Assembly (NCBI GenBank): GCA_000091205.1
Contig: AP006498.2
Source of the DNA: Cyanidioschyzon merolae
Taxonomy: Eukaryota
Length of the DNA stretch: 64,000 nucleotides
Direction: 5' to 3' (one strand)
The position numbers were made by a program, and so were the translations under genes. Positions within the stretch are counted from its first letter, which is position 1, and the number at the start of each line of letters is the position of its first letter. Under the pieces are notes generated by a model. It saw only the letters and a program-made list of their open reading frames with translations, did not search any database and had not been told where the DNA came from. Of the stretch, positions 1-54,986 are shown in pieces.

Positions 1-1230
1 GACTCGTTCTCGTCATTGGGAGTGTGTTAGTGTATTCGTTAGTGACCGGACAGGCACCGCGGCGATGGCAGCAAGCGCAAACCTGAATCGATGCCGTCAA
101 ACCGAGCTGCTGGCTCTGCAGGGCACCGCACGGAAGACCAACGACTCTGAGAAAGATGCTGGAGTGCTCCAATGCCGTCGCTTGCGGCTGGTTTCGAAAC
201 GAGCTTTCCACGCGGATCGAGGCGAGGTCTGCAGCGGGGCGGGATGCTCTTTTGCGGAAAGGATGTTACCGCAAGGGTTTTGAGGGCGTCGCTCCAGCCA
301 GGATGCCGGCGGCAAGGGATGGGCGACGAAGGCCACTCGACCATTTTGGGTCGGTTATGAAGTTATGGATGTTGGGGTGCGCCTCGGAGGTATCCCTTTC
401 CCGAGTGGACCTGGACGATTCTCACGTGAACGAGGCACGTTTTCCCTTGAGGGCTACTCCTGCGGCTGGAACGGAACTTGGATTCTGGATGAACCGTGGA
501 CTTTTTCAAGCGATATGAAACGCATCGTCCCGGCTTGCAGATGATCGAGCTGCATACTTCTCGCTTGCCACCGTGCGACTCTACCTGAGGCCGATTCGAG
601 CGAAAACAGCAGCACGCATACTCGACGCAGTGCGCTCTGCTTCGGTAGCTAGTCACTGGCTTCTTTTTATCTAACACGACCGGCTCATGCATAGGACTGA
701 AAGTGACTGGAGCTGGAACGAAAACCGTACGATGGAGTGGATCTCCTGAGCACGTGCCTCCGAGTCCGTTGTGCATTGCTTTGCGTGCTGGCAAACGCCA
801 CCAACAGTTGTCTTGCTGATCAGGCGCAAGAACCGTTGCGGTTGTCCGATTCATCAGCCGCCGGAGAGGTCAAAACTTTGTGGACAATCGCGAGCACTGG
901 CGTCGGGACACACTGGAACACGGCTTGCGCACAGCAGCTAGCTCGACACCGGCAAACAGAACGCGTGTTTGCGACTGCCTCCTTCGATGCGGACAAGTGT
1001 CGTGGTGGTGCGTGGAAGCACCCACTGAGGCAAGCATTCGGTTGAATCCGCTGTTGTGAAACGCGAGTTTCTCTTCTGGTACTCTTTAAAATCGTGGGTA
1101 CACCTCGATGATGCCCGAGGCCATTCTGGTCCAGCAGACGCCGTCCAGTTCAGGTAATCGCTTTTTCTTGCGGATAACGACCGAGCGCGACACCCCGCAC
1201 ACCTGCGATACAAGTGCTTAGCGCAGGCGT

Positions 1231-2325
1231 TTAGAGAGTGTAGCTCACTTGTGCTGAACACTGTGGCAAATTCCTTTCAAAGACAAACAGCGATCGCTTT
1301 GCGCAGGCCACCTGGTACCCGTGGCCTATTCCGCGGAAACGGGGAGCCAGCGTCACCACCCGGCGCTTCCGCGCCTCAAGTAGTTTCCTACCGATGGCAT
1401 TGTAGATTGTGAGTGTGATCGCTGCGAGCGGTGCGAGGTACATGACTCGCGGAACGGAGCCTTTCATGAGCGTTGCCGGACCCTCCTCTGCAATGATGCG
1501 GCGGAAAGTTGGCAGAATGCCGCGATACGTGCCGTCAGCGCCTTGGGTCATCAGACGGGTCTTCACGACATCTACGGGTGTGAGCATTAAGGCCGCAGTT
1601 GCACCTCCTATTGCGGCTAGGACGAGGTTTTCTTGTCGGTTCGGAGCGCGTTTCTGAATCCGTTCGAAAAGGCGCGACTCTTGGAGGAAAAATAGAAAGG
1701 AAAGCGCGTTCCAAGGAACATCACGAGAAACCGTTGCCCAGTAACCACGATATAGGCCACCGAATCCTTCTTTCTGGAGAATGGTGGGCAGCGCGACCCC
1801 GATGTGAGGATATAGATCCGCCTGGATGCGCTGTTTGAGCACTTCTTGCGGCACTCGAATAAAGGATGCTGCGAAAGCGCCGGCAGCTCCGGAGACCAAA
1901 TCCACCACAACCTGTCGCCAGGCATGATTGCGACCAGAAGACGTAACTTTTGTTGACGCTTGTTTGGTATGCGAAGCTGGCGGCAGTAGCAGCTCGGTGA
2001 GGCGTTGTTTGCACCACTCGTACGCAACGAACTGCACGCCGCCCGCTGGCACCGCGAGAACAACCTGCGGTATCACGCCTTTGATAAACACCCGCGGTGA
2101 CCAGTCTCGACGAACACCCCGGGCCTGAAGTCGGGTACGCACCACATCTATTGGGTGCAGCAGGGTCTGCGCAACACCACGAGCCGAGGACCCTGCCAGC
2201 AACTTCTCCGTAAACGTTAGCTGCGAAAGCGCATCAACGCCAGTGGTCGTAGCAGCTCCGGCGCTGACTGCAATGACAGTTCCAGTTGTCTTCGTAAAGG
2301 CGTTTTTATTCTCTTTTGAACTCAT
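1231..2325 (-). CDS. Mitochondrial carrier family protein, S-adenosylmethionine carrier (SAMC)-like
   Basis: 364-aa ORF that starts at a true ATG (cat at 2323-2325). It has three carrier repeats with the P-x-D/E-x-x-K/R signatures: 'HPIDVVRTRLQ', 'RVPQEVLKQRIQ' (SAMC-like 'RVPTEVVKQRMQ') and 'TPVDVVKTRLM'. After the first and third of these come the usual G/aromatic-rich half-repeats ending in 'YE' ('VQFVAYEW') and 'YN' ('LTIYNAI'); the second is followed by 'GLYRGYWATVSRDVPWNALSFLFFLQ'. Confidence 0.75.
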   Translation of the reverse strand: MSSKENKNAFTKTTGTVIAVSAGAATTTGVDALSQLTFTEKLLAGSSARGVAQTLLHPIDVVRTRLQARGVRRDWSPRVFIKGVIPQVVLAVPAGGVQFVAYEWCKQRLTELLLPPASHTKQASTKVTSSGRNHAWRQVVVDLVSGAAGAFAASFIRVPQEVLKQRIQADLYPHIGVALPTILQKEGFGGLYRGYWATVSRDVPWNALSFLFFLQESRLFERIQKRAPNRQENLVLAAIGGATAALMLTPVDVVKTRLMTQGADGTYRGILPTFRRIIAEEGPATLMKGSVPRVMYLAPLAAITLTIYNAIGRKLLEARKRRVVTLAPRFRGIGHGYQVACAKRSLFVFERNLPQCSAQVSYTL

Positions 2326-2645
2326 GGACGTTGTGCGGTCGAGAGTGAGTTCTGGTGTTGCGTGCCGGAGCGAGGCACTGAATTGAACCTATATCGTTTC
2401 GTCCGGTTAGACGCTGAAGAGTACCCTACAGAGCCTCAGTTCAAGTGAATATCCGGTAATACCTAGTTAAAGAAGGCTCAATCGGTTCCAGTAGACACCT
2501 GTTCGAGAAGAGGGATACAATCCGAGCCAAAACTTACGTTCGTACACGTGTACCACAAGAGACTGTAAAACCGCCTTCGAGCCGATGCTCGTAGCGAGCG
2601 CCGCAGGCCACGGCAACCGTTCTGCGGATCGCAGCTGCTCGCGGC

Positions 2646-3736
2646 GATCACCGGCAGCTCCGGATGGAGAATTTCTGATGAAAAGAAACGAAAAGTCGAT
2701 TATGTAGAATACAGAGGCTCCAAACCAGGGATTCCTCCCTCGTACAATCGTTTTGTTGGTTGAATAGAGCTCGGCAGCTCCGGATGGAGAATTTCTGATG
2801 AAAAGAAACGAAAAGTCGATTACGTAGAATACAGAGGCTCCAAACCAGGGATTCCTCGTCATGCAAATCGTTTTGTCGGTAGAATAGAGCTCGGCAGCTC
2901 CGAATGGAGAATTCCTGATGAAAAGAAACGAAAAGTCGATTACGTAGAATACAGAGGCTCCAAACCAGGGATTCCTCCTTCGTACAATCGTTTTGTTGGT
3001 TGAAAAGAGCTCGGCAGCTCCGGATGGAGAATTCCTGATGAAAAGAAACGAAAAGTCGATTATGTAGAATACAGAGGCTCCAGACCAGGGATTCCTCCTT
3101 CGTACAACCGTTTTGTTGGTTGAAAAGAGCTCGGCAGCTCCGGATGGAGAATTCCTGATGAAAAGAAACGAAAAGTCGATTACGTAGAATACAGAGGCTC
3201 CAAACCAGGGATTCCTCCTTCGTACAATCGTTTTGTTGGTTGAAAAGAGCTCGGCAGCTCCGGATGGAGAATTCCTGATGAAAAGAAACGAAAAGTCGAT
3301 TATGTAGAATACAGAGGCTCCAGACCAGGGATTCCTCCTTCGTACAATCGTTTTGTTGGTTGAAAAGAGCTCGGCAGCTCCGGATGGAGAATTCCTGATG
3401 AAAAGAAACGAAAAGTCGATTACGTAGAATACAGAGGCTCCAAACCAGGGATTCCTCCTTCGTACAACCGTTTTGTTGGTTGAAAAGAGCTCGGCAGCTC
3501 CGGATGGAGAATTCCTGATGAAAAGAAACGAAAAGTCGATTACGTAGAATACAGAGGCTCCAGACCAGGGATTCCTCCTTCGTACAATCGTTTTGTTGGT
3601 TGAAAAGAGCTCGGCAGCTCCGGATGGAGAATTCCTGATGAAAAGAAACGAAAAGTCGATTACGTAGAATACAGAGGCTCCAGACCAGGGATTCCTCCTT
3701 CGTACAACCGTTTTGTTGGTTGAATAGAGCTCGGCT
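2646..3736. repeat. Tandem satellite, 120-bp unit x 9 full copies plus a partial one
   Basis: The unit 'cggcagctccggatggagaatt(t/c)ctgatgaaaagaaacgaaaagtcgatta(t/c)gtagaatacagaggctcca(a/g)accagggattcctcc...caa(t/c)cgttttgttggttgaa(a/t)agagct' starts at 2652, 2772, 2892 and so on up to 3612. Copies are about 93-98% identical and the few variable positions recur in a mixed pattern. Confidence 0.95.
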
Positions 3737-5408: not shown

Positions 5409-7757
5409 ATGATCTTCAATGTAGAGAATGTCAAGGTTTACTTTCCCTACGACTACGTCTATCCTGAGCAGTACGCGTATATGCGCGAGTTGAAGCGTGC
5501 GCTCGACTCGAATGGGCACTGCATTCTTGAAATGCCGACCGGCACGGGAAAGACGGTGACCCTTTTATCGTTCATCACCTCGTACCAGCTTGCCCACAGA
5601 GAGGTTAGGAAGCTGATCTACTGCACGCGCACTGTTGGAGAACTGGAGAAAGTCCTATCTGAGCTGGAGGTCGTAATCAGGTACCGCGACGCGCAACTTG
5701 AAAAGGCAGGGAAACGCGACCAGGCTGCCGCGGTCTTGGCGGTAGGCCTCACAACTCGACGGAACCTGTGTTTGCAGTCGGCAGTCTCCAAGGCCGAGAG
5801 TCGCGAAGAGGCCGACTCGCTCTGCCGATCACTCACCGCGAGTTGGGTTCGGGAATCTCACTCGGCCGCAATCGCTCGTTTTGAGAAGAACCCCGACCTT
5901 GAAGACCTACCCACCACGCTATGCCAGTTCTACGAGGGCTATCGACGGGAAGGCAACGATGCGATCCTACCTTCGGGGATCTACACGCTCGAGAAGGTAC
6001 TCCAGATCGGTCGAGAGCGGGGCTGGTGCCCCTACTACACGGTTCGACATACCATGAATTTCGCCAATGTGATTGTGTACAATTATCAGTACCTGCTGGA
6101 TCCGAAGATTGCAGGCCTCATTTCGCGAGAACTCTCCCGTGAGTGTATCGTTGTTTTCGACGAGGCACACAATATCGATAATGTCTGCATCGATGCGCTG
6201 AGCGTGAGTCTTCGACTGGACGACCTGCGACGTGCTCAAGCAAACGTTGTAAGCTTGCGCAATCGGATCCAAGAAATTCGAACACATGACGAAAGGCGTC
6301 TCCTTGAGGAATACCGTCGCATCCTACAAGGCATTCGACGGCCCGCGGACGTGGACGCCTTCACAATCGAAGCCTCGCCCGTCATTCCAGAAGATGTTTT
6401 GCAGGAGACCATCCCGGGCAATATCCGACGAGGTGAACACTTTCTCTTGTTTCTGCTTCGATTGATCGATTTCTTCCGACAACGAATGCGATCGACGCAA
6501 GTGACCCAGGATACACCTCGGAATTTCCTCCATGCTCTGATGCCGTCAGTTCAGATCCCTGACTCGAAACCGTTGCGGTTTTGTTCGGATCGGCTTGCGT
6601 CACTGCTGCAAACGCTGGAAATCAGCAATGTTCGCGATTTTGTGTCGCTCCAAAAGCTTGCACACTTTGCAACGCTGCTTGGAACCTATTCGCAGGGCTT
6701 TTCCGTGATCATGGAACCGTACGATGAGCGCGCCCCGAACGTGCCGGATCCTGTCTTGCAATTGAGTTGTCTGGATGCCTCTATCGGGATGCGACCAATT
6801 TTCACCCGTTTCCAGTCGGTGATTCTGACCTCGGGAACGATCTCACCCCTGGATCTCTATGCGCGTATCCTGGGCTTCCGACCTGCGGTCGCACACTCGC
6901 TGAACATATCGCTGCACCGGGCGTCCATTTGTCCGATGGTGATCGCCCGCGGCTCCGACCAGATCGCGATCAGCAGCAAATACGATAGCCGCAGAGATCC
7001 GAGCGTCATTCGCAACTATGGTGCGCTACTGGTCGAGCTGGCCAGCGTCGTACCAGATGGCGTCGTTGGATTTTTCACGAGTTACATTTATCTGGAAAGC
7101 GTCGTGCAGATGTGGCACCAGATGGGAATTATTCAAAAGTTGCTAGAGCACAAGCTCGTCTTCATCGAGACGCCGGACATTTTTGAGAGTTCGGTTGCGC
7201 TGGAGAACTACCGACGAGCTTGTGATAGCGGCCGAGGAGCGATCTTTCTCTGCGTTGCTCGGGGAAAAGTTGCTGAAGGAATCGATTTTGACCGACACTA
7301 TGGGCGCTGCGTCGTCATAATCGGCGTGCCGTTCCAGTACACAGAAAGTCGTGTCCTGCGCGCTCGGCTGGAGTTTCTTCGCGAGCACCTGCAGATACGC
7401 GAGGGTGACTTTTTAACGTTTGACGCGATGCGACAGGCTGCGCAATGCATGGGACGGGTTATCCGTTCTAAAGTGGATTACGGACTCATGATTCTGGCAG
7501 ATCGTCGCTATAATCGGGCGCAGAATCGGAGCAAACTGCCGCTATGGATTCAGAGCCATCTCGATGAGGGCAAAGTGGACCTCAGCACCGACATGGCGTT
7601 GGGTATCATTCAAGAGTTTCTGATCCGAATGGCGCAGCCGCTGGATCGGAAGGAAATGATCGGGACAACGCTGCTTCGTGAGATCGATCTGCAGGCGCCT
7701 GGGGACACCAGTTTTTCGGAGACCGCATCGCCAATAGCGCTCATGGGATCCGCTTGA
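5409..7757 (+). CDS. XPD: TFIIH/NER DNA helicase XPD (ERCC2/RAD3)
   Basis: 782-aa ORF starting at an ATG. Walker A 'EMPTGTGKTVTLLS', DEAH box 'VVFDEAHNIDN', and four Fe-S cluster cysteines in the expected spacing ('NLCLQS', 'SLCRSL', 'TLCQFY', 'GWCPYY'). The N-terminus 'VYFPYDYVYPEQYAYM' and the C-terminal helicase domain 2 'GRCVVIIGVPF' match XPD along the whole length. Confidence 0.9.
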   Translation: MIFNVENVKVYFPYDYVYPEQYAYMRELKRALDSNGHCILEMPTGTGKTVTLLSFITSYQLAHREVRKLIYCTRTVGELEKVLSELEVVIRYRDAQLEKAGKRDQAAAVLAVGLTTRRNLCLQSAVSKAESREEADSLCRSLTASWVRESHSAAIARFEKNPDLEDLPTTLCQFYEGYRREGNDAILPSGIYTLEKVLQIGRERGWCPYYTVRHTMNFANVIVYNYQYLLDPKIAGLISRELSRECIVVFDEAHNIDNVCIDALSVSLRLDDLRRAQANVVSLRNRIQEIRTHDERRLLEEYRRILQGIRRPADVDAFTIEASPVIPEDVLQETIPGNIRRGEHFLLFLLRLIDFFRQRMRSTQVTQDTPRNFLHALMPSVQIPDSKPLRFCSDRLASLLQTLEISNVRDFVSLQKLAHFATLLGTYSQGFSVIMEPYDERAPNVPDPVLQLSCLDASIGMRPIFTRFQSVILTSGTISPLDLYARILGFRPAVAHSLNISLHRASICPMVIARGSDQIAISSKYDSRRDPSVIRNYGALLVELASVVPDGVVGFFTSYIYLESVVQMWHQMGIIQKLLEHKLVFIETPDIFESSVALENYRRACDSGRGAIFLCVARGKVAEGIDFDRHYGRCVVIIGVPFQYTESRVLRARLEFLREHLQIREGDFLTFDAMRQAAQCMGRVIRSKVDYGLMILADRRYNRAQNRSKLPLWIQSHLDEGKVDLSTDMALGIIQEFLIRMAQPLDRKEMIGTTLLREIDLQAPGDTSFSETASPIALMGSA

Positions 7758-8964
7758 TACGAGGCTGTGTACACGCGACGACTGCGGCGACCTCGCTGCG
7801 AAAAGGGCGTCACTGGGGTGCTCGTGTATATCGCTCCTGCCAGTCAACCGAGTGCAATCGTTTGGAGCGATTTGCTCGTAAGCCTAAGCGGCAGAGTCGC
7901 CAGCACTTACCGGGCATGCGGTATGAGATGGGTCAGCACCCTGGCTACGGCAGTTGATCCTAGCACATGTTCACTGCTTCCACCACCTGGGAACTAGCTT
8001 CAGACACGGTGTAGAGCGGTGGCTCCGGCACCGAAGTCTACAGTGGTCACAGTGTCTGCAGGCGTCGTGGGTTAAACTCGGAGCCGTGCGTTCCGCAGAA
8101 CGCCTGCAACATCATGCACTTTTTGCATGTACTTGTGTGTTTCTCGCAGTTACTCCATAAAAGGAATCTATCCTTTAGATTGGAGAGAGGTCGCTGAAAG
8201 ACTGTAGGATGTCGCTGCCCGCATGCGAACAAGCGGCCTGGCATTTAAATGTGCGTCATTCTACGGTCAGCAGGTGGATGAAGTACGCTTCATGTAGTCA
8301 TGAGCGAGAATGTCGTGCACCCAAAATGGATCCTATGAAACTCTACGTAAAAGAATGTGTCCTGCATGTGCGTGGCAGGCAGCAGCAAGGCGCGCATGCG
8401 CTCAAGTTCGGGCTGCCCACGGAGGAGGTAATGTAAAGGTACTTGAGGAATCGAAGATGCGTACGTAGGGCAGGCGAGGCTCAGTCCCAACGTTTTCCCA
8501 GAGCGTCTGAATCCCATAAAACGGATATCCAGTATCTCAACAACATCTGTGTCACTTTGGCGGGTGAAGAAGAAAGCTAGCAAGATGGAGAAGGAGAAGG
8601 AATTTTCAGAAAAGTGAACAACGAGGGACAGGAAGGAAGATTTGTTTGAGCGGGAAGAACAGCCTGGAACCGGTGTCAAGAACCCTCTACTGAATCAAAG
8701 ATATTGGGAGCATCCTCCGAAACGTGAGGTGCATGGCATCATTGCGAGCCGTTGAGCTGCTCACTCGAGGAAGGCTCGTCCGGCTTCCCGCGCCTCGGCA
8801 CACCTCGTCAACCAACTGTTCGCATGCGTTGCGGACGTAGGGCTGCCAGCTTTACACATTTCTCCGGAATTTTCTCATCAAGTTTTCGTGCGTCAAGTGA
8901 CGCTCGGGACAGAAGATGCAAAACGACCTGATTCTCCAGAGGTCGGTATCATCGAGTTCCGAGC

Positions 8965-9657
8965 ATGATGAACGCCACGAGGCACACCAACAAGTGGGAT
9001 GATGGCGTCAGGACTCATCTCGATGCACTGAAAACCGAATCGAGGAGAGCCGTACGCTCTGTACGCTTCATTCAGAGCGTAAATGAGCGACCAAATGCCG
9101 CATGCGTACGATGCTTGGCAGGAGTTCATGAGATCGTGCTGGGTGGCGATCGGTTGCGGTTGCTCGATGGCAAGGAACATGCATTCGTTGTCTTATTCAA
9201 TAAGCTGGAAAAGGAAGTCCCCGAAAATTTGCGTCGTTCAGTGACAGACTATAGCTCTGGACGTGCGGTGACGCTCAGGGGCTGCACTCTTGCTCCTTTG
9301 ACCAGAGTGTACCAAGAGTGGAGGAATCGATTCCGCAAGATTTCCATCGATGCGTTCAGGACGCCATACACGCACCACGAGCACTTGTGCATGCTGGAAG
9401 AGGAAGAGAAGAAGCGAACAGTGAAACAGAGCTGGATGCACGAGATTGCGAAGGGCACGCTGATCGAGCATCAGATGGCGATGCAGTTGAAGATGAGAGG
9501 CTTGCTATGGTGTGATTCGACCAGAGACCATGCGCACAAGCGCCTTCTCCCGCGATACTTGAACGCCTCGATCAGTATTCGGAAATGTCTCGTACTTTTG
9601 GAGCTTTCGGCGGATTGGTTTCGAGCGATTTTTTCGAGAAAACTGTTTCGTACTTAA
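8965..9657 (+). pseudogene. Degenerate fragment of a TnpB/Fanzor-like nuclease (zinc-finger to RuvC-III region)
   Basis: The translation '...YQEWRNRFRKISIDAFRTPYTHHEHLCMLEEEEKK...MRGLLWCDSTRDHAHKRLLPRYLNASISIRK' is collinear with the C-terminus of the 39-41 kb copy ('IPIDEFRTSYTHHELGCTLQRVEMEK...VRGLLALVRTTNGKKRIEFVNRDFNAAINVR'). The RuvC-III Asp is lost. The segment is AT-richer than its flanks. Confidence 0.45.
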
Positions 9658-15948: not shown

Positions 15949-18900
15949 TGCGATAAGCTCGTTGAACAGAAGAGACTTGTTTCTTGAAACGAATTGCGTA
16001 TGCGTCACGCACTTTGCGTGATCGTTGCAGCGTAAATTTTTAGCGTCAGACTTGTAACGTACGCTTCCGTTGGCAGCGTCAACCGGAACGTCGAATTCCA
16101 ACGAGAACGACTCCGTTCGATAACCAGCGCACTTTCGTCTTGAATGAGGTTACCTGTCCTTCACGAAATGAAGACGAAGCTGTTCAGTACGCCAGTCGCG
16201 CTGGACGTCCTCGAACTGACTGCGTTTTGCTGCGGTCTGTGAACACCAGATGCACGCGTCACCCACAAACACACACGAAGAGTGATGTTCAGGTCAAGCG
16301 CCGCTGGTACAGTGATCGATGCGCGGACGCCGTCATGCCCCGCCGTGTCGCCGTTTTTCGGGTGATCCGCGGATGGCGTCGCTGGAGGGTATGTCCGTCT
16401 ATATATGTCGCATTTGTTTTGTTTCATCGAACGTAGACACAGCGGAGACCAGCGATCCCCGATTGCGGGATGCGCTCCGGCATTCGGGAAAGCATCCATC
16501 ATGCTTCACACTACGTTCAAGTTCCTCTACCGATACGTTCCCCTCGAGGGTACTGGTTATTGCTCAAGTTCTATCGTGCGCCGAGTGTGTGCCTCGGGCG
16601 CCCGCGTTCGCGTCCATAGCGCCAGTGCGGATACAAGGTGACGACAGAAAAGCTTTTCCGTACGGGGATCGGATGATGGCATCGCATGCCATGGCAGAGC
16701 ATCGCTCGGGTCGCTGATGGGCATTCTCAATGCTGGAGATCCATTATGGTGGAGCTAGAACTTTGGCAGGTCCGTCGTTCAATTCCAATCTGGAGGCTGG
16801 TAAAGCGCTCACTGGGTCTAGGGAGAGCGCGATGAAGCATATGCGTCGGAGGCTAGCGAAGTGGATGGAATCCCCGTGTAAGACGAGTCTCTCCCTAGCG
16901 TGCGAGCAATGCGGTCAAGCGCGTCGCCATATGCCTCTGGAATCCACTTGCCGCAGAGCGTGGGACGTGAATCTGGCGTGGATTTCGTGAAAATCACCGG
17001 AAAACCGGATGCAATGATGTATCTAGAGTTTTGCCCTGATCTGCACCACCTGCATGACGCGTACAGGTGCGCACCGATCTCAGCGTTCACATGCGAGGCG
17101 GGCTACGTGCTGCGCATCCTGCAAACAGGGCAGAGGTGCAGCGAGAAGTCGCTGCTTGTGGTCTTTTGTCGCTGATGGGATAACGCATGTGCAACATGCT
17201 TGCTTGACGCGTCGCTTTCCGTGCAGCACGCAAATCGAACGAGCTCTACTTGGCATCGCATTCACGTACATACGTGGTCCGTACCGAGCGGTGGAAACGT
17301 GGAATGTCTCTGTTTCATGATGCTGCTCAATACAGCGATGCGCTGCCTCGGATCCTTGAGAAGCACCTGGGCACTCGACGCACTTGCGGCATCGCCATAT
17401 CACCTCCAGACAAGTATGTGATGTTCTGGAAGCATGTTTTCGGGTTGTGACGGGCGCAAAGTCATGGTCATGGGACGCAACAGGCACATCTTTTCCGCAA
17501 TTTGCGTGATATCATTGAAGAAGAAATCATAAGGAAAACGAGTCTGTTGGGCGCTGACGAGGCGTGGTGCTCGCGGCCCCAGCGACAGTGGCTTGGGACT
17601 CGTTTAGGGTAGTCTTGCATCCAAGCCAGTCACTTGTTTTCGCAAGTTTCAGATATATCATGAAATGTCGAGAAACTTGCTCCAGCACTGCGTGAAGCGT
17701 CGCACACCGGCCGCACGAAAAGCATCCGCTCTGGACGTTAGCCCTGCGGGCTATGCCCGTGTCTGATAAAAATTAGAAGCTGAAACGCTCGCCCTCCCCT
17801 GTCTTGCCATTTTTTCGAACTTTATTTTAGATCTTCACACTCGACATTCCAAGACCAGTAATTCGAGCTTACCGTGCTCGTACGTAATTTTAAGTGTTCT
17901 CGGTCGTGGTTTCCAAGTGGCCCCTCGCCGCGGTGCCGCTGGGATTCGTTGCGTCATCCGAATCAAGATGATTCGCGACGCGTTCGAACCAGGGTCCGTA
18001 AACTAAGTGATATCATCATCCAGTCCATGCCTGCAAGCCTCTACGCTGCTCCTTTCCTCGTGTATAGCATCGCCACATAAAGTATTCTTCATTGTTTCAA
18101 TGCTTCTTTTCCAGGGTAACTCGTGTGCGCAGAAATTCGCGTCGCTGGATTGAAATGCGAAAAAGTACTCGAGGTCGAGCCTTATCATCTTGTTCACAGG
18201 CTGATGCCGAGCGTTTAATGAATTTGCCACGTCAAGTAATCGATTCCGATCGAAAGACGGATGGTCCTCTCCTGGTGGCTGCCAACGAAAGAGAATTCCA
18301 CCATAGAAGCACGATGCTTCTTACAGAACATGCCCCTATAGGCGCCCGTCTCTTCTGTTTATATGGATAAGGGTCTTGGGCTCGTAGATAAGTCCCGGCA
18401 GCGATCGCTTTGAGTGGAGCGTGCGTCACCGCTTTGAATGAAAGGAGTGTATACCGGGCGGAATTTCTCGACTTGTTCTGTAGCCTGGATTTTTCGTTCG
18501 ATGCTTATTTCATGAAAGACAGCATCGTGCACCAAAAATCCCGTGTCAAATGGAACAACATGTGTTTGTGTATGCAGCGGACAGCGTACTCGCCCAGTGA
18601 ATAGCCTAGAAAAAAATCCGTGATCCTAAGCGACGGCGTCGGGCGAGGAAACAGAAGAGTGCATCGAAAGGAGCCTTCTGCACCCTTCGAGGGCATGCAC
18701 TGAGTGATGAAACATGTATCCCCATGGCATAATATGCGCCCGCGGAAGAAAGCGTTTGGTTATAGACGTGGCGGAGCAGCCGAACACAGCCCGGTGTCAC
18801 CGCTCCGAAGCGCGCACCGATGCAGCATACAAAGAAGATGAAAAGGGTAAACTATACGTGGATCGCAACTTCCGCCTGTACATCAAATGCAGCGGCAACA

Positions 18901-19599: not shown

Positions 19600-19800
19600 C
19601 ACTTCATGCAGCAGAGGCCGGCCCACAAAGTCAGATCACGTCAGCTCCGCAGGTCTCGTCTTCAGCGCTAGACGTCGTCTGATATTGATGACGGTGTACA
19701 AGTCTCGGTTCACGAAGTCCATGCATGCATTGCCGCTGGTTGACCGCCTCAGTGTAAGGATTCCTCAAACTCTTGCCCTCTGCGCCTCTGCAGTCTCGTC
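19600..19800 (-). mobile_element. Short remnant of the TnpB/Fanzor-like element (RuvC-III region)
   Basis: The reverse complement of 19673-19790 translates to '...ILTLRRSTSGNACMDFVNRDLYTVINIRRR'. This matches 'ALVRTTNGKKRIEFVNRDFNAAINVRS' of the 39 kb copy. It shares the string 'cgtcgtctgatattga' with the 54.7 kb copy. It lies in a low-GC, gene-poor island. Confidence 0.4.
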
Positions 19801-20398
19801 ATCGTTCCGTCGGCCAAAAACGTTTCCTCGCTTGTCTTCCTTCTTTTTCTTCGACATTTGCTCTTCTTCGCTCGATGGTAAAGGACAAGAGGATTTTTTC
19901 GTTTCTTTTCGGGTACCCGGCAACACCGAGCCTCAAGGATCCGCGATTTTGCATGTCCATACCTTTCCCTTGGTCTTTTCATTTCTTCAAAATGAACGCA
20001 CTTCCAACGCTTCTGCTATAGACCGCAAAAAAAAGCACTTGAATCCACGCACCTGGGGAATGCAACACAGTTGAGCTGAAATACTAGAGAAATCGCAGCG
20101 TTGCGCCACCAGCGGATCCCGTACTCACTGAACGGAGGCCTATCTAGTCAGCAACTCGTCGATTGTCCAGGCTTCTGGACTGAGGTAATAAACGCTTCGA
20201 AGGTAGACGCGCTGAACGCTCCTCAGGTTCCGGAAACAGAGCCGGCGTTCTGGCGAGACACTGGGACTCACTGAGCCCACTTGCGCTCAGGGAAGCCGCC
20301 TCGTGAACAGACGTTCCATAGGGGACAACCTGGTGCGCACAAGGACGCACCTGGTGTCGCGTCTGGTTGTCGACGTTTTCGCGTAAGGAACTGAGGTC

Positions 20399-22729: not shown

Positions 22730-23099
22730 CTCGAGCCCGCACCTGAGTGTCTCCGTATCCCACGCCTTGCGTAAAAGAGTCACCACAGCAGGTAGTGGTA
22801 GTGGTGGTGGATATCGAACTCGGAGAATGTTATCCGCCGTTGGCAGGGGTGCGCTGGTAGCCGCCCCAAGAACGCATACTTCAACAACTCGTTGGACTAC
22901 ATCGAGCGTAGCGCATAAACAGCGCGCCTGTCAGCCTCCAAGAGTAACGTATGACAACGCTGCTCCAGAGCGGCTGCCTGCACGGTTCCGAAACTGCCCT
23001 GCAAACCTGTCTGTTTTTCTTCCACGGCGTCCCGCAACGCCTGCATCCGCGCCTTGCCGATGACACTGTATGCGGCAGGTCCCTGTTCCGGCCTGTACC

Positions 23100-23228
23100 G
23101 TGAAACGCCTGACGTGTCCAGTGGATGCGTGCGGATGGCGGACGCCTACCGCGATGCGTGGCGCTGCGTGAAACGCGTGACGTGTCCAGTGGATGCGTGC
23201 GGATGGCGGACGCCTGCCGCGATGCGCA
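23100..23228. repeat. Tandem duplication, about 68-bp period x 2
   Basis: 'gtgaaacgc(c/g)tgacgtgtccagtggatgcgtgcggatggcggacgcct(a/g)ccgcgatgcg' occurs at 23100 and again at 23168. Confidence 0.8.
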
Positions 23229-35980: not shown

Positions 35981-36185
35981 CAAAACAATGCACCGAAAAC
36001 GATCGCGTGATGGAAAAGCAACCTGGGAGAGGAGGCGCACATGCCGAAAACAATGCACCGAAAACAATCGCATGATGATAAACCTCCCCAAGAAAGGAGG
36101 CACACGTGCCGAAAACAATTTACCCAAAGCGATCGCGTGATCATAGACCTCCCCAAGAAGGAAGGCACACGTGCGCAATGCTGCC
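35981..36185. repeat. Tandem repeat, about 65-bp unit x 3
   Basis: Three successive copies of 'cgaaaacaatgcaccgaaaac(g/a)atcgc(g/a)tgatg...cc(t/c)ccccaagaa(a)gga(a)ggc(g)cacatgc'. Confidence 0.7.
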
Positions 36186-38428: not shown

Positions 38429-39205
38429 TTACGACGGCTTCCACTTGATACTACATCCGATGCTCGGCAGTTGATTTTCCGGAGGTGACTGTCCATTCAC
38501 GCATAACTGGATGGCGTTCCGGAGGTCCTCACCTGTCACAGGAATATCGTTTCCGGGTCTACTGCCGTCCAAACGCCCCCTATAGAACAGCTTGCGCTCG
38601 TGATCCAGAAGGTAAAAGTCGGGCGTGCACGCGGCTTTCCAGCCACGAGCAACATCCTGTGTTTCATCGTAGAGAATCGGAAACTGATAGCGACGCGTTT
38701 TGATTTCCTCCGCCATACGCTCCGGTGCGTCGTCCGGGTGTGTTCCGACAAAGTTACTGCTGATGCCAACCATTTTCACCGGGCCAAACTTTCCAGAACT
38801 AATATCTGCACTCAACCGAGAGAGCTCGCCAGCAATGTGCTTCACAAAAGGACAGTGCGCAGCCAAGAACACCACAACGAGGGCTTTCGGCGGCGGACTG
38901 TCCGCGTAGAGCGAATCGAGAGACACGATTTCTCCTGTAGTTACGTCGGGTAAAGCAAACGCCGGCATAACCGTGCCGAGTTCAACCATAGCAGACTCCG
39001 TACGAACCATTTGAAGCTGTTGAAACGTGCTTCTAGCAGACGGCAAGCGCGTACCCCGGCTGACTCGTCGCGCAGTGCGAGCTTCGCTCCGCACAGACGC
39101 TGTTCGTCGTCCCCGAACAAGGCCTTGGCTCACTGGCCTTGTCGTCGTAAGCCTAGGTGCTAGCAAGAACCCCAAGTATCCCTTGACGCATGCAGTGGCT
39201 CGCAT
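38429..39205 (-). CDS. Thioredoxin-fold redoxin (AhpC/TSA/TlpA-like) with an N-terminal organellar transit peptide
   Basis: Thioredoxin-like core 'FALPDVTTGEIVSLDSLYADSPPPKALVVVFLAAHCPFVKHIAGELSRL' (CP-F active-site region) ... 'YQFPILYDETQDVARGWKAACTPDFYLLDHERKLFYRGRLD'. It is preceded by an Arg/Ser/Thr-rich presequence 'MRATACVKGYLGFLLAPRLTTTRPVSQGLVRGRRTASVRSEARTARRVSRGTRLPSA'. The track ORF starts at TTG 39220; the first ATG is 39205. Later ATGs at 39010 and 38989 are possible if the upstream part is junk derived from the transposon. Confidence 0.55.
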   Translation of the reverse strand: MRATACVKGYLGFLLAPRLTTTRPVSQGLVRGRRTASVRSEARTARRVSRGTRLPSARSTFQQLQMVRTESAMVELGTVMPAFALPDVTTGEIVSLDSLYADSPPPKALVVVFLAAHCPFVKHIAGELSRLSADISSGKFGPVKMVGISSNFVGTHPDDAPERMAEEIKTRRYQFPILYDETQDVARGWKAACTPDFYLLDHERKLFYRGRLDGSRPGNDIPVTGEDLRNAIQLCVNGQSPPENQLPSIGCSIKWKPS

Positions 39206-41381
39206 GCGCTCCAGTTGCAAATGCTTCTGGCGGCACAGTCGAGACGCTGCGGTCGGCAGTACAGTAGTGGCGAGAAACCCGCCGTAAACACGACGTCTGC
39301 CACTGACGTGCAGACGCCTCCCAGCCTTTCTCGACCGGCACCCACTACTGCTTCCAACTTCTTCTCATATAATTCCACTTTTAGAGGTTGTCCAATAAAG
39401 TTCACTCTTGTGGACCTTCGGGGTCTTTTCTCGAGCACTGCAGATCTTACATTGATCGCAGCATTGAAGTCACGATTCACAAACTCAATCCGTTTCTTTC
39501 CGTTGGTTGTACGTACTAATGCAAGTAGTCCACGAACTTTCGCCATCTTTTTCATTTGCTCTTCCGTCAGCGGTCCGTATTTTTTTATATCCTCAGGGTT
39601 CCGCTGACACTTTTCCATCTCCACTCTCTGAAGTGTACAACCCAGTTCATGGTGTGTATAAGACGTTCGAAACTCATCTATCGGTATCATAACGAAACGC
39701 CGTGTACACTCCTTGTACGTTCTTGTCGTTGGAGCTGGCGTAGTTCCTTTTTGGGTCTTCCAACGCCCTGCTCAGTATGCCACAACGAGCCTCTGACTTT
39801 GATCCTCTTTGAAGGCACTCAACTGATTGAAAAATTCGCGAATGCACGCTGCTTACCACAGTATAGCTTCATTCGCAAACGAGCCCACCGGGGCTTTGTA
39901 TACTCCTCCCACAGCGGCTTCCAGTGAGCAACAGGAACTTCCATGATTTTCCGAAAAGCATCAAAGTCCGCTCCTCGGCTCGTCACCTCGCTCAAAGTTT
40001 CCAGGTGCTCTTTCATTCCTGAATTGCAAGTCTCGATGTTCTTCGTCGTATTCAATATACGGGATTCTCGGTAATATCTCGCTCTCGAGAACCTCAACAG
40101 ACGCATGTCTTTCTGAAGTAAGTTGCCGTCAGTACGAGCTTCCGCACTCCTGGGTACTGCGATGGTAATGATGTTAGTGCTCCCGGGGTCCGCGCCAACG
40201 ACAAAGTCGTTATCCTGCACTTTCTGTGTGGCAGGATCCGAATCCTTCTTTTCATCATGCTTCGCCGCGTCAACGACATGGTCGTTATCCTGCACCTCCT
40301 GTGTCGCAGGATCCGCCTCCTTCTCATATTCATGGTTCGCCGAGGGCGGAACTGGACGACCTTTCTTCAACAGCCGATAGTTTACACACTAGGCTACTCC
40401 ATCGGTTTCGATGATCCCAGTGAATACCTTTTGCTTGCTCACTTTGAGACGTTTGAAATCGAAGATATTCTTCCAGTGCGTCTCCCGGTTTTCACCGGAG
40501 AATTCCTCCCTGTTGACACTGAACTCCGGACTGATCTCCTTCATGATGCCGTGAAGGATTCTGGAGTCGATAGTCATAAAAAGTGACTTGATGTTGCACA
40601 TTGGAACCATGTTGAACCGCTTCCCCATTAGGACAGCCTTCCGTCTCTCCCACTCTTCATTGCTTTCCTCACTCAGCTTCATCTCTGCCTTGGGATCGAG
40701 CTCTCGGTCCAAAAACAGGAAATAGCGCAGGACGAGGCGATAGTATCTTTCCTTATCTTTTTTCAACTCTGATACGTTCTCTGCTGGATTCGCAAACCCT
40801 AGTACCGCACGATGCTCTTGTATAACCGCACGCATTACAGAAGCTTCATTCGTGAACTAGTTTGACGCTTTCTTGTCAACGAATTCGACCTCATCTTCAC
40901 GCTTACGATCTTTCGTGACGCCATTGATAATCGCACATTTCCCATTGCGAGATAGGCCCAGGTAGAGTGCAACCACGGCGCGTATCATGAAACGTTCGAG
41001 GTTCGTTGTCAAATGGTTCTTCAGGTTCGTGATGCACTTCATCGCCCCATAGTCGTAAATATCCCGGTCACCCCTGTATCAAATACCGTTGGAGATGTAA
41101 AAGGAGTATTTTTGGCAGAGGGCGTGCACTCGCTCATTTTCCGTCCGCGTTCCCCCTGTGCCAAGCATCAGGTGACGAATAAAGGTCGTGTCGAACAACT
41201 CGTCTGGAACCTCGACTGTTTCCATGTGCGTCACGTCTTCATACATCTCCCTCGCCAAATGCATCAGTCCTGACGACGCCTTGACAAAACTCTTGGAGTA
41301 CGAATCGACACGGTTTCTGATAGCGTCTCGCAACTTTTCCTTGTACGGATTTTTGATATGTTTAAGAAGACCGGCTTTCAC
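39160..41381 (-). mobile_element. Decayed TnpB/Fanzor-like (OMEGA-family RuvC nuclease) gene, most complete copy of a dispersed family
   Basis: Five consecutive minus-strand ORFs in shifting frames: 41079-41381, 40857-41042, 40389-40835, 39819-40370 and 39160-39690. Together they carry a RuvC-I-like '[17 protein letters not shown]', the zinc-finger-region block 'IPIDEFRTSYTHHELGCTLQRVEMEKC', and RuvC-III 'IEFVNRDFNAAINVRSAV'. The interval is visibly AT-richer than the neighbouring genes. Three further fragments of the family occur in the window. Confidence 0.55.
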
Positions 41382-42511
41382 CCCCGTCTCGTCGCACAGT
41401 TGTCTTTCGCGCAGCTTTTGACGTCGGGCCTACCCCTTTTGCTTCTACTTCTTTTCCTGCTCTTCTGGACTCGGATTTTTTTTTGTTTTTTTCTGGCAGC
41501 CGGCGACACTGGGCCTCCAGGATCGTCGACTAGCTTTTTCATAACTCTCCTTTTTTAGTTTTTTTAAAAAGAACGCTCTTTGAACCCTTCTGTTATGTAC
41601 TGCGAAAAAGCACTTGACTAGACTTGTTTGAGGGTTGAAACATAATTGATCTGAAAACTATACTTTGCTACGACTTAAAAGCAAATGCAACTTGTACGTT
41701 AGAACAACAAGTCGACGAATGATCATGATCGCGTTTCCATGCAAAGGCGAGTTGCACGCCGTATCTCTTGCGGCCCTGATCTCCAAGAAGCGCTATCCAC
41801 CGCACTATTTAGAAAAAAGAACATAAACCAACCCCTAACTAGCAACGAAATAATAATTTCTTTCCGTCTCTACTGTAAACGATAAAAGGGCGAAAAGATT
41901 TCCATATTGTGGAAAGTTTAGCTTGTCTGCGGAAGGTCCCTCGAGCCAGACGAGTCTGCAAGCCTGGTGCCCGGTGTGCCTCTAACGTGGCTGATGCCGC
42001 TGCAATGCCTGCGTATCTCGTCTCCAAAGCGGCTTATTCTGGGACTAGAGGCAGTTATGCTGCGTCTGGACGTCATCCTGTTCGCGGTGGACTCCTAGTA
42101 TGTTGATTCGCGCTGCCGCAGGCAGTACGTATGTCTGCGCAGCTTGCTGGCTCCCAGAGTCATTATGCACTCGGAGTCCAAGTCAGCTGAACGACGCTTC
42201 GAGCCAATGCCCTCACTGGTATGGCAAAGCTATTTTGTCTCTATGATGCATCCGCTCCAGTAGTTTAGGCACTACGGCGGGTGCTCACGGTAGGTACTCG
42301 GCGCAAGTTAGAACGCACGAAACGACCAGTATATCCGAGAGGACGTATGGGTAATGGAACGTTAAGGCGGGGTACAGCACGATGGACACTTTTTCGATAA
42401 CCAATATTCATCCTGCAATCTGGGATCCATGGCCAATGTACGCGAATTATGTCATCGAAAAAAATTGGACATGCGCCCGCCATCGGCCTTGTGGCTCTCC
42501 TGATGGCAATG

Positions 42512-42680
42512 TCGCCTCTATGGGATACTACAATCGATGCTCGCCTCTATAGGATACTACAATCGATACTCGCCTATATGGGATACTACAATCGATACTC
42601 GCCTCTATGGGATACTACAATCGATACTCGCATCTGATGATGCTACAGTCGATGTGCGCCTCTGATGATGCCGTGCACGC
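42512..42680. repeat. Tandem repeat, 29-bp unit x about 5.5
   Basis: 'tcgcctctatgggatactacaatcgat(g/a)c' repeats at 42512, 42541, 42570 and 42599, then degenerates into 'tcgcatctgatgatgctacagtcgatgtgcgcctctgatgatgc'. Confidence 0.8.
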
Positions 42681-42873
42681 GCACCGGAAGCATCGGGTGC
42701 CACCGCGTTGATCTCGGCGCATCGTACTCGAGTCGTCGCGTTTACAGCTTTTGGGTGCAAGCCTAGGTCGTCGTCTTTTCTTGGATAGCATCTGGGCCAA
42801 CTTGACGATAACGAAGTAAAATCGGAACACTGATTGAGCGCTATTAGGAGACTTGTTCGAAGTTTTTGGGAGA

Positions 42874-44241
42874 ATGTTTCAGTTCGCGGTGCTGAAGCTG
42901 ACGCGTACGCCCAGGTGCGCTGGGCACACGGCACCGCGTTCGTTGCAGGCTGCTTCTGGGGCAAAGTTTAGGCTGCGCTCGGAGCGACTCAGGTATCATG
43001 TCGCTTCTCTTGCGCTCCGTGCGGCGCTGGATACAGACTATGAGGGCTGCTTGTCCGAAAGCAGCGTCGTCGAAACCTGCAACGAAGCCCCGTTGCTCCT
43101 GCGGGTCTTGCGCTGCGACCCCAGCGTGCCGCGGCCACCGGTATGGTTCATGCGTCAGGCCGGCCGCTACATGAGCGCGTTTCGGATGTACTCTGGGCGT
43201 TATGCGTTCCGCGAGCGTGCCGAAACACCTGAAATCGCTGTCGAGCTTTCGCTGCAGCCGTGGAGAGCGTTCGGAGTGGACGCCGTCATCATGTTCGCAG
43301 ATATTTTGACCCCCTTGCCGCCCATGGGCCTTGACTACCAAATCGTATCCGGACAGGGTCCATCGATTAAAACTCCTGTTCGATGCATGGAGGATGTTGA
43401 GCTTGTGCGTCCGCTCACCCCCGAGGATACAGAGACAGCACTTAGCTTCGTGGGAACGACACTCTCGACGCTTGCGCATACGCTTGCAGACGCTCGTCCG
43501 AGACCGGCGCTGCTTGGATTTCTGGGTGCACCCTTCACGCTCGCTGCATACGGGATCGAGGGCGAAGGCGGACGGGCCTCATCAGGCAAGCAGGTGAAGC
43601 GCATGATGTACACAGCAGAAGGCCGAGAACTCATGCATCGATTACTGCAGAAAATCACACAGAGCATGATCGTTTTTGCAGCTTACCAGGCTCGAAAAGG
43701 AGCTGAGGCGATTCAGATTTTCGACTCTTGGGCCCACTTGCTTAGCCCCGAGGATTACCAGGAGTTTTCGCTCTTCTACGTGGAAGAATTGGTACGCGGA
43801 ATCCGTGCGCATGGCGTCGAAACTCCATTGATCTTCTTTGCAAATGGGTCGTGTGGTAAGTTGGGGGTCATCTCTGCGATGTATCCAGCGGATACGAGGG
43901 AAGCCAACGGATACCGGGGTCTCGATGCGCTCGCCCTGGACTGGCGAACGAGCATCGCAGAGGCGCGTCAGCTGTTTGGCAAGCGAGCGGTGCTCCAGGG
44001 CAACATCGATCCAACGGTATTGGCGTGCGGCGACACTGCCAGCGTGAAGGCAGCCATTGATCGTTGTGTTTGCGCTGCGTCGGGTGGTGCGCATATCCTC
44101 AATGTGGGCCGTGGTATTCAGCCGGATACCCCCGAGGAAATGGTCGCGCTCTTCTGTGAGCACGTTCGAGCTCTTCCAGAGACAGACTGGTATCAGCAGT
44201 TGCGACATCGGCACCTGGTTGAAAATGGAGTGCCAGGATAG
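42874..44241 (+). CDS. UROD: Uroporphyrinogen decarboxylase (HemE/UROD) with an N-terminal targeting extension
   Basis: Canonical 'PPVWFMRQAGRYMSAFRMY' N-terminal motif, then 'FGVDAVIMFADILTPLPPMGLDY' and 'LLGFLGAPFTLAAY'; the length and collinearity fit URO-D throughout. About 75 aa of Arg/Ala/Ser-rich presequence precede the core. The track ORF starts at TTG 42853; the first ATG is 42874. Confidence 0.9.
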   Translation: MFQFAVLKLTRTPRCAGHTAPRSLQAASGAKFRLRSERLRYHVASLALRAALDTDYEGCLSESSVVETCNEAPLLLRVLRCDPSVPRPPVWFMRQAGRYMSAFRMYSGRYAFRERAETPEIAVELSLQPWRAFGVDAVIMFADILTPLPPMGLDYQIVSGQGPSIKTPVRCMEDVELVRPLTPEDTETALSFVGTTLSTLAHTLADARPRPALLGFLGAPFTLAAYGIEGEGGRASSGKQVKRMMYTAEGRELMHRLLQKITQSMIVFAAYQARKGAEAIQIFDSWAHLLSPEDYQEFSLFYVEELVRGIRAHGVETPLIFFANGSCGKLGVISAMYPADTREANGYRGLDALALDWRTSIAEARQLFGKRAVLQGNIDPTVLACGDTASVKAAIDRCVCAASGGAHILNVGRGIQPDTPEEMVALFCEHVRALPETDWYQQLRHRHLVENGVPG

Positions 44242-47173: not shown

Positions 47174-47915
47174 CCGTATTCCGGAAGCGGCGCGACGACT
47201 GTTGGGTACGCATGCCCCAATGCATCCCTCGCGGGATCTTTGTACAGCATCCAGTCTGCAGGGCATACGACGCAATCGCCAGCCCTGCATCATGGTCGAT
47301 TTCCTCGTGGTTGTAAACGACCGCAAGCCATACAGCATGCGCTTTGCTTGTTGCCTGGAAAGCGATCATCGCTACGATATCCACCGGCATGCAGGGTAAG
47401 CGCTGTGCGAGCTCGCCGTAAAGTGCTCCACCCCAGCGCCAATCGTCTCATATGTTTCATTCTGGAGCACAAGGCGCCGTCCTCAACGGATATGAGCGTC
47501 GTGCACCTCTGGACAACGCCGGGCATGGTAGAGGATCGAAACGTTCCGCGACATGCGGCGGCATGAGCGGAACGCGATTGTGGATCCCGCGTACTCGACG
47601 ACCTCTGGAAAGCGTTGTGAACCCAGGCACTTGGTGGAAACGATGCATAAGGTCGCTGGATTCCGTGGTGTTCAGCAAGATTAGCTCTGTCACATGTCAA
47701 TCATCTTTGAATGCGACGAGCTGCGTGCTGGAGCGCCCACAGGCACCCGGCGCAACGTATCCGGTACACGATGTTGCCATGGGTGACGTCCCCTGGTGTA
47801 AACAATGCACGAGCCGCATCACTGCTGCATAAAGACTAGCCGGTGGAGAAGGTGAAGCTCCGGTTGCTCGATGAATCAAAGCCCAAGGCGAGATGCAGCC
47901 AACGCAATCAATAAA

Positions 47916-48192
47916 GTGATGCTCACCGCACGAAAGAAACCCATTCGGTATCAGACGCATAATTGAGTAGACTTGTATGGATTGTCCGTACAGTGACGCT
48001 CACCGCATGGAACAAACCCATGCGGTATCAGACGCATGATTGAGTAGACTTGTATGGATTGTCCGTACAGTGATGCACACCGCACGAAAGAAACCCATGC
48101 GGTATCAGACGCATAATTGAGTAGACTTGTATGAATTGTCCGTACAGTGATGCTCACCGCACGAAACGAACCCATGCATTATCAGACGCATG
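47916..48192. repeat. Tandem repeat, 77-bp unit x about 3.6
   Basis: 'gtga(t/c)gc(t/a)caccgca(c/t)g(a/g)aa(g/c)aaacccat(g/t)cggtatcagacgcat(a/g)attgagtagacttgtatg(g/a)attgtccgtaca' begins at 47916, 47992, 48069 and 48146. A (CGT)7 run follows at about 48229-48250. Confidence 0.85.
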
Positions 48193-48644
48193 ATTGACTT
48201 GAATGCCCGCACCGCTTCGTGTGTAAAGCGTCGTCGTCGTCGTCGTCGACTCGGGCAGCTTCATGCGGATTCACGCTTGGCGGGCTGGTTCGAGTCTCGA
48301 CCGCAAGATCGTCTAGAGCAAACGCGCTTGCTGGCAGCCATTGGTCTTTCAACGATGCCGTTGTACCCAAGCGCCTCTATCAGAAACCTTCACAAGAGAT
48401 ATTGTAAACACCCCGTAGTGCCCTGCTCGGTCACGCACGAACCCGAATCGCAGGCACATCATCTCCGTCTCAAGCGAGCAGCATACCTCAGCAAACGCGA
48501 TGAAGATCGCCTGCTTGCAGCGCTTCACAGTAAGCTTTCCACGACTTTGTCGAATAAGCCAACACCTGGTCACGAAAAGCGGCATCATCGGCAATGGTGA
48601 CGCAAAGCGCGCTCGGTCGTAAACAAGTGCAAACGTGACTCTAT

Positions 48645-54635: not shown

Positions 54636-54986
54636 TCAATCCAGCGGCTGTTTGGATATCGTACGCGGCGAGCGCAATCGCTGTGGTGTCGATACCATCA
54701 CCGCCATTTTCGCGAATATATTTTTTGGGACTGAACGTCGTCTGATATTGAGGGCTACGTTGAAGTCTCGGCTGATGAACTCCCTGGGTTTATTGTCTCT
54801 GATGGAACTCACCAGTACATGGAGTTCCCCAATTGGTGCGCGCTGAGCGAATTGGCACCCTGTTAGCGCTTCGTGCTTTTCCATGGCCCAGGCGCTCCGC
54901 TGGCTTTTCTCCATCTCGACCTTCTGAAGTGTACACCCGAGTTCATCCCATAGCTTTTTTATTTCTTCAAATGAACACGCTTGCAC
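54636..54986 (-). mobile_element. Fragment of the TnpB/Fanzor-like element (zinc-finger to RuvC-III region)
   Basis: The minus-strand ORF translates to 'EEIKKLWDELGCTLQKVEMEKSQR...REFISRDFNVALNIRRR'. The coding nucleotides 'gaactcgggtgtacacttcagaaggtcgagatggagaaaag' are about 85% identical to 'gaactgggttgtacacttcagagagtggagatggaaaag' in the 39.6 kb copy. Confidence 0.45.

Follow-up and report, generated by a model that had tools for sequence, protein, structure and literature searches.

A 64,000-nucleotide stretch of the Cyanidioschyzon merolae genome (contig AP006498.2 of GenBank assembly GCA_000091205.1; hereafter the window) carries a broken nuclease-like gene next to a redoxin gene. With a probability of about 0.95, the locus represents an old CMe-1A insertion that has been inactivated; CMe-1A is a transposase-less Fanzor1 element of this red alga. 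The object is already known: the family consensus, its protein and its copy number were published in 2013. For C. merolae, a single Fanzor1 family, CMe-1/CMe-1A, is listed by Bao & Jurka (2013; Mob DNA 4:12, PMC3627910). The CMe-1A consensus is 3169 bp long, the CMe-1 protein has 734 amino acids (aa), and about 150 copies exist, each about 80% identical to the consensus (Bao & Jurka, 2013). The published consensus encodes Fanzor1 only and is without terminal inverted repeats, its target-site duplications are given as undetermined, and its first 635 bp are 95% identical to a separate element, TE-N2_CMe (Bao & Jurka, 2013).

Identity, extent and decay of the element copy

The consensus DNA and the CMe-1 protein were taken from the supplementary files of Bao & Jurka (2013). 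In a global alignment, the CMe-1A consensus and the window copy are colinear and identical at 2694 of 3137 aligned positions (85.9%). Window position 42457 matches consensus base 1 exactly, and the final ~15 nt of the consensus are unmatched, so that the copy is truncated at its 3' end. Because the consensus aligns colinearly from base 1 to about base 3153, the element measures about 3.2 kb. Searches agree with this placement: blastn gives 84-86% identity to the consensus over 3.15 kb, and tblastn with the published protein against the window returns E = 0. The sequence-only reading had placed the gene at 39160-41600, an interval that was roughly right although its boundaries were not those of the element, which runs from 39242 to 42457 and exceeds the flagged interval by about 860 bp of 5' non-coding sequence. 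The parts of the copy are as follows.

39242..42457, minus strand: whole CMe-1A copy, consensus 1 to ~3153 of 3169 (global alignment to the published consensus)
41817..42457, minus strand: 5' module equivalent to TE-N2_CMe, consensus 1-635 (colinear alignment)
39284..41542, minus strand: degenerate Fanzor1 coding region, consensus coding sequence (CDS) 906-3110, 734 codons (codon-wise alignment)
40190..40342, minus strand: in-frame ~78-bp (26-aa) repeat in two copies, just 5' of RuvC-I (self-blast and TRF)
40155..40202, minus strand: RuvC-I motif, catalytic Asp codon 40190-40188 (read from the sequence)
39661..39687, minus strand: RuvC-II motif IPIDEFRTS, catalytic Glu codon 39675-39673 (read from the sequence)
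39478..39660, minus strand: TNB-domain region between RuvC-II and RuvC-III (YTHHELGC...KC...), a degenerate zinc ribbon
39448..39477, minus strand: RuvC-III motif NRDFNAAINV, catalytic Asp codon 39471-39469 (read from the sequence)
39242..39480, minus strand: 3'-terminal ~240 nt, where an omega-RNA scaffold would be expected

Membership in CMe-1A is supported by this colinear similarity to the 3169-bp consensus, including the TE-N2_CMe module that the window copy retains. Host and absence of terminal inverted repeats are likewise shared; such a repeat was sought across 39100-42600 and none was found, in agreement with the published description. The divergence of the copy is close to the published copy identity, and nothing essential separates it from CMe-1A: it is without the last ~15 nt and has a duplicated 78-bp unit.

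The coding region is heavily damaged. Codon-wise alignment yields a conceptual protein identical to CMe-1 at 579 of 735 residues (79%), interrupted by six premature in-frame stops (first bases 41447, 41432, 41081, 40859, 40391 and 39774) and shifted by three 1-bp deletions (near 41475, 39835 and 39340). The copy also has two 3-bp deletions, has lost its stop codon and has gained 63 bp in frame by tandem duplication of the ~78-bp repeat unit. An intact reading frame, as in a functional member, is not present in the window copy, and its lesions indicate that it is no longer able to encode a working nuclease. The sequence-only reading, which took the locus for a near-complete but disrupted Fanzor/TnpB-like pseudogene, is borne out by these lesions and by the profile and fold matches described below. 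It had also described five open reading frames (ORFs) in different frames; three-frame translation shows instead that a single frame holds all pieces from 41381 to 39819, with stop codons between them. The listed lesions, including the lost stop, account for the way in which the broken ORF continues, out of frame, into the first part of the redoxin CDS.

Fanzor genes of other eukaryotes can contain introns. The host is eukaryotic and the catalytic motifs are all preserved, which would suit a functional host gene in which spliceosomal introns hold the stops and frame changes and the mature mRNA encodes an intact Fanzor. Each stop, however, falls on a gap-free coding position at which the consensus and the homologues read a sense codon, each frameshift reflects the loss of one base against the consensus, no inserted segments lie beside the stops, and the neighbouring genes are long, uninterrupted ORFs. 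The stops at gap-free coding positions rule out introns as the source of the frame breaks and leave a spliced host gene highly improbable.

An inactivated CMe-1A insertion is also in keeping with the base composition of the locus. The earlier observation that the interval is lower in GC than its flanks stands (0.47-0.51 versus about 0.55-0.58), and the G+C content of the window copy (48.6%) is below that of the CMe-1A consensus (52.3%). Of the substitutions that separate the copy from the consensus, 224 are transitions and 219 are transversions; G>A and C>T are the commonest. The near-equal numbers of the two classes rule out mutation resembling repeat-induced point mutation and leave a general drift from G/C to A/T. 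By this spectrum, the base change in the window copy is ordinary neutral decay, and the "AT-rich island" results from such decay toward A+T.

Placement of the CMe-1 clade and its 3' end

Searches with the stitched translation recover many relatives at 60-80% identity, including P0001, a near-intact 752-aa ORF from a hot-spring metagenome, which has 69% identity to the conceptual protein of the window copy. In an exhaustive HMMER search over 1.84 billion representative proteins, the CMe-1 family comprises 3812 clusters at E <= 0.001 (531 at E <= 1e-30), and its typical protein has about 620 aa. Among distant relatives looked up by cluster, Haematococcus was the one organism named. A 52-sequence family alignment built from these relatives was used for a profile and an AlphaFold2 model. 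A word-index protein search with the alignment as query returned close relatives only. The precomputed Pfam annotation of the family is PF26935 (DUF8286), a domain of unknown function.

Compared with the PDB by hmmsearch, the family profile matches the Fanzor1 proteins of Parasitella parasitica (9cf0, E = 1e-21), Spizellomyces punctatus (8gkh, E = 8.3e-14) and Guillardia theta (9cer, E = 1.3e-10). The TDG, RuvC-I, RuvC-II and RuvC-III motifs align in the same order between the profile and the solved Fanzor1 proteins. The AlphaFold2 model of P0001 has a mean predicted local distance difference test score (pLDDT) of 81.1 and a predicted template modelling (TM) score of 0.79; a run with 15 sequences gave a pLDDT of 36 and was unusable. 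In a Foldseek search of the PDB, all seven significant matches of the P0001 model are Fanzor1 (E 2e-16 to 3e-13). The best is SpuFz1 (E = 1.9e-16, TM 0.58-0.60 / 0.71-0.73), followed by PpFz1 and GtFz1, and Cas12 variants, Fanzor2 and TnpB match much more weakly (E about 3e-3 to 5e-2). Because both profile and fold matches point the same way, the CMe-1 clade is supported as a true Fanzor1, and PF26935 (DUF8286) is, judged by the profile and the modelled fold, part of Fanzor1.

The catalytic residues fit this placement. The RuvC-I Asp aligns to DPG/DPN of the solved Fanzor1 proteins, the RuvC-II Glu to DEFRTS/DEYKTS and the RuvC-III Asp to NRD, and the codons of the D...E...D triad are preserved in this order in the window copy. 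In the 52-sequence alignment, D484, E656 and D725 (P0001 numbering; DPG, DEFRTS and NRD motifs) are invariant. The motifs quoted in the sequence-only reading are indeed present on the minus strand (RuvC-I at 40202-40155, NRDFNAAINV at 39477-39448), the order it proposed (RuvC-I, zinc-finger region, RuvC-III) is that of the alignment to solved Fanzor1, and the three RuvC catalytic residues line up as it had suggested checking.

The CMe-1 clade matches the solved Fanzor1 structures (SpuFz1, 8gkh and 9ceu-9cez; PpFz1, 9cf0-9cf3; GtFz1, 9cer-9cet) over the whole protein, with TM up to 0.60/0.73, the same motif order and a similar size, but sequence identity is only 13-15%. It differs further in the variable, low-complexity 26-aa repeat inserted before RuvC-I. 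Among family members (metagenomic loci L001-L075), the ~78-bp repeat count ranges from 1 to 5, and the repeat region is the sole long disordered stretch of the P0001 model (residues 375-470, low confidence). The 26-aa repeat is acidic and lysine-rich.

The RuvC core is shared with bacterial TnpB (IS200/IS605) and Cas12f, and the logic of an RNA-guided mobile-element nuclease would have been common to these systems and the active ancestor of the copy. In contrast to bacterial TnpB, CMe-1 is twice the size, has by the published consensus no associated TnpA and resides in a eukaryotic nucleus. ISDra2 TnpB (8h1j) gives a structural match that is weak and partial (E ~2e-2, TMq 0.17), and Pfam OrfB_IS605 and OrfB_Zn_ribbon, as found in TnpB, match no CMe-1 sequence above threshold. 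The locus might instead be a bacterial or viral TnpB/IS200-IS605 element, or a Fanzor2/IS607 element, present through horizontal transfer or contamination, and both the weak PF07282 (Cas12f1-like TNB) matches in 26 of the 52 relatives (best E 5.6e-05) and the presence of TnpB and Fanzor2 structures among the weaker fold matches lean that way. This origin is nevertheless barely credible: every one of the seven significant fold matches is a Fanzor1, Fanzor2 and TnpB reach only ~1e-2, the protein has ~730 aa as in Fanzor1 rather than ~400 aa, nuclear genes of C. merolae lie on both sides, and the family is dispersed in Cyanidioschyzon-type contigs.

For CMe-1A as a Fanzor1 element, a working cycle can be sketched by analogy with the solved and tested Fanzor1 systems. 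An active CMe-1A would express Fanzor1 plus a non-coding omega-RNA. As in characterised Fanzor1 systems (PMC11423790), the 3' end of the element would encode the omega-RNA and the adjoining DNA beyond it would supply the guide part, and the ribonucleoprotein would cut matching DNA beside a short motif. With its six premature stops and three frameshifts, the window copy is no longer able to perform any of these steps.

An omega-RNA at the CMe-1A 3' end is plausible, since the last 254 nt of the consensus fold better than shuffled sequences (z = -2.99, 1/200). The fold contains a terminal hairpin and, over a longer range, a 9-bp helix (CAGTAGTGG/CCACTACTG). In the window copy, the 3' end folds less well (z = -1.59) and is no better conserved than the rest of the element. 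An Rfam search of the 3' end found no match.

Several results weigh against an identification as a Fanzor1 element. Pfam-A yields nothing significant for the ORF fragments, the conceptual protein or P0001, and PDB sequence searches with P0001 alone or with a 15-sequence profile return nothing. A C4 zinc ribbon, which belongs to the published TnpB/Fanzor motif, was sought between the RuvC-II Glu and the RuvC-III Asp and not found; CMe-1 has two Cys and two His in this segment. RNAalifold on 32 distinct copies of the 3' end recovers only three pairs, and for two hand-specified structures (about 80% of cells paired) covariation scores across the 32 copies are no higher than those of shuffled controls. 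RNA-guided DNA cleavage dependent on a target-adjacent motif (TAM) is known for SpuFz1, GtFz1 and PpFz1 alone (PMC11423790). Finally, CMe-1A is without a transposase, terminal inverted repeats or an identified target-site duplication.

Since the copies are dead and have diverged neutrally from a few source copies, the missing covariation tells neither for nor against an omega-RNA. The Pfam check proposed in the sequence-only reading (OrfB_IS605/OrfB_Zn_ribbon) gives no significant match; taken alone it would have led to a wrong rejection of Fanzor, and membership is therefore shown by the family profile and the fold comparison.

The zinc-ribbon segment is a property of the clade. SpuFz1 and PpFz1 have a CxxC...CxxC zinc ribbon, visible as CxxC...C...C at the equivalent segment of the profile alignment, whereas the relatives of CMe-1 have 0-3 Cys between RuvC-II and RuvC-III and no conserved C4 pattern. 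PF07282 (OrfB_Zn_ribbon/TNB) stays below threshold for the window fragments, the conceptual protein and the relatives. As aligned here, the CMe-1 clade is without a canonical C4 zinc ribbon: the segment is present and the metal ligands are not. The block that the sequence-only reading had noticed at the zinc-finger position is thus real as a segment but not as a C4 finger.

Insertion site and the redoxin gene

Genes in the window are dense, and their ORFs are long and uninterrupted, at about 55% G+C, in line with expectation for this red alga. A 782-aa ORF at 5409-7757 is an exact match to XPD/ERCC2 of C. merolae 10D (BAM81721.1), which together with the exact redoxin match assigns the window to that strain. 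The CMe-1A copy sits in the intergenic region between two divergent host genes, in the same orientation as redoxin.

38429..39205, minus strand: redoxin, thioredoxin-fold, 258 aa, host gene outside the element (Pfam AhpC-TSA and Redoxin)
42853-44241, divergent from redoxin: uroporphyrinogen decarboxylase (HemE) ORF

The window redoxin is identical to the annotated 258-aa C. merolae 10D protein, with its CDS start at 39205, and its N-terminal extension is kept in Cyanidiococcus. The sequence-only reading had the nuclease gene overlapping this start. The overlap exists nominally, as out-of-frame read-through, but the last position homologous to the element lies some 36 bp before the ATG annotated for redoxin (39206-39242). 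On the other side, a 29-bp tandem repeat array of about five copies (42512-42671) adjoins the 5' end of the element towards HemE.

In Cyanidiococcus yangmingshanensis and a related metagenomic alga, the HemE-redoxin interval is 1.2-2 kb long and without the element, so the CMe-1A insertion is lineage-specific. Both are too diverged (68-81% in coding DNA) for reconstructing the exact insertion site.

With only about 36 bp between the element and the ATG, almost no non-element sequence is left for a redoxin promoter. On this geometry, the promoter or 5' untranslated region (UTR) of redoxin probably lies inside the decayed element. A stronger proposal is that the 3' end has been co-opted as the redoxin promoter or 5' UTR and has a present-day regulatory function, a proposal that gains from the proximity and shared orientation of element and gene and from the length of the intergenic region at the same site in the relatives without the element. 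We consider it improbable. Transcription of redoxin may just start inside the element or run through it without being under selection, and the 3' end of the window copy is truncated and shows no better conservation than other parts of the element.

State, ends and relatives of the family

The decayed CMe-1A copy in the window is typical of its family, which is dispersed in many copies in Cyanidioschyzon-type contigs. Among 71 related loci taken from hot-spring metagenomes, all 71 have stops or frame changes relative to CMe-1. In the best of them, L001 (the source of P0001), the N-terminal 20-30 codons are out of frame, the core is open for about 720 codons, and a premature stop falls 35 codons before the consensus end. 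According to Bao & Jurka (2013), some genomic CMe-1A copies still encode an intact Fanzor1, and their paper had already raised the idea, put forward again in the sequence-only reading, that intact copies would be candidate nucleases. Since nearly every sampled hot-spring copy is dead, a functional enzyme would probably need rebuilding from the consensus.

The locus itself matters little, as one of ~150 decayed copies that cannot encode a working nuclease. What the analysis adds is that fold and profile place the DUF8286 clade in Fanzor1 and that this clade is seen to have lost the canonical C4 zinc ribbon; these side results are refinements of existing knowledge rather than a discovery. A bolder proposal is that the CMe-1 clade forms a distinct zinc-ribbon-less Fanzor1 branch whose near-intact Cyanidiales members (for example P0001, or a reconstructed consensus) are still-active RNA-guided nucleases that take their omega-RNA from the ~250 structured nt at the 3' end and use a T-rich TAM. 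We hold this to be doubtful. If true, it would provide a heat- and acid-adapted eukaryotic programmable nuclease from the thermoacidophilic Cyanidiales, and it might help to explain the spread of an element that has neither terminal inverted repeats nor target-site duplications nor a transposase.

Metagenomic copies of the family (loci L006-L068, consensus ~540-700) are modular at their 5' ends. Most start at about consensus 648-690 and are without the TE-N2_CMe module, which is carried by a minority of copies. At about consensus 648-690 the same Fanzor core is fused, in other copies, to further 5' sequences that fall into at least three classes, each shared between copies. Because most metagenomic copies carry other 5' sequences, the TE-N2_CMe part is a separable module. 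Among copies with both ends (L041, L057 and L073), no matching flanks that would mark a target-site duplication were found.

A T-rich motif, approximately GATTTTKTTTC, lies directly upstream of base 1 of the CMe-1A/TE-N2_CMe consensus and is common to independent copies. It occurs in the window at 42458-42470 and 16435-16446, and at loci L057, L055/L058, L024/L025, L022/L035, L041/L043, L048 and L034/L007. Flanks beyond the shared motif differ among copies, and TT follows most 3' ends. Given this arrangement, the published 5' end may be about 10 nt too short, or insertion may occur next to a T-rich target motif.

Further fragments of the CMe-1A family are scattered through the window: a TE-N2_CMe-like 5' piece at 16447-16663 (plus strand), a remnant of CMe-1A with an internal deletion at 19613-19780 and 19895-20086 (minus strand), and a RuvC-II/III remnant at 54742-54946 (minus strand). 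A fragment at 8627-9657 (plus strand) belongs to a second, far more divergent Fanzor1-like family, beyond the single Fanzor family that Bao & Jurka (2013) list for C. merolae. Its protein is 35-38% identical to CMe-1 and P0047, an internal deletion fuses N-terminal residues ~40-134 to the RuvC half, and the catalytic region is altered at the Glu (DAFRTP) and from RD to RY.

Tandem arrays elsewhere in the window include a 120-bp repeat at 2652-3735 (nine copies, 96% identity) and shorter arrays at 47915-48197 (77 bp x 3.7), 35982-36174 (65 bp x 3) and 23099-23226 (68 bp x 1.9).

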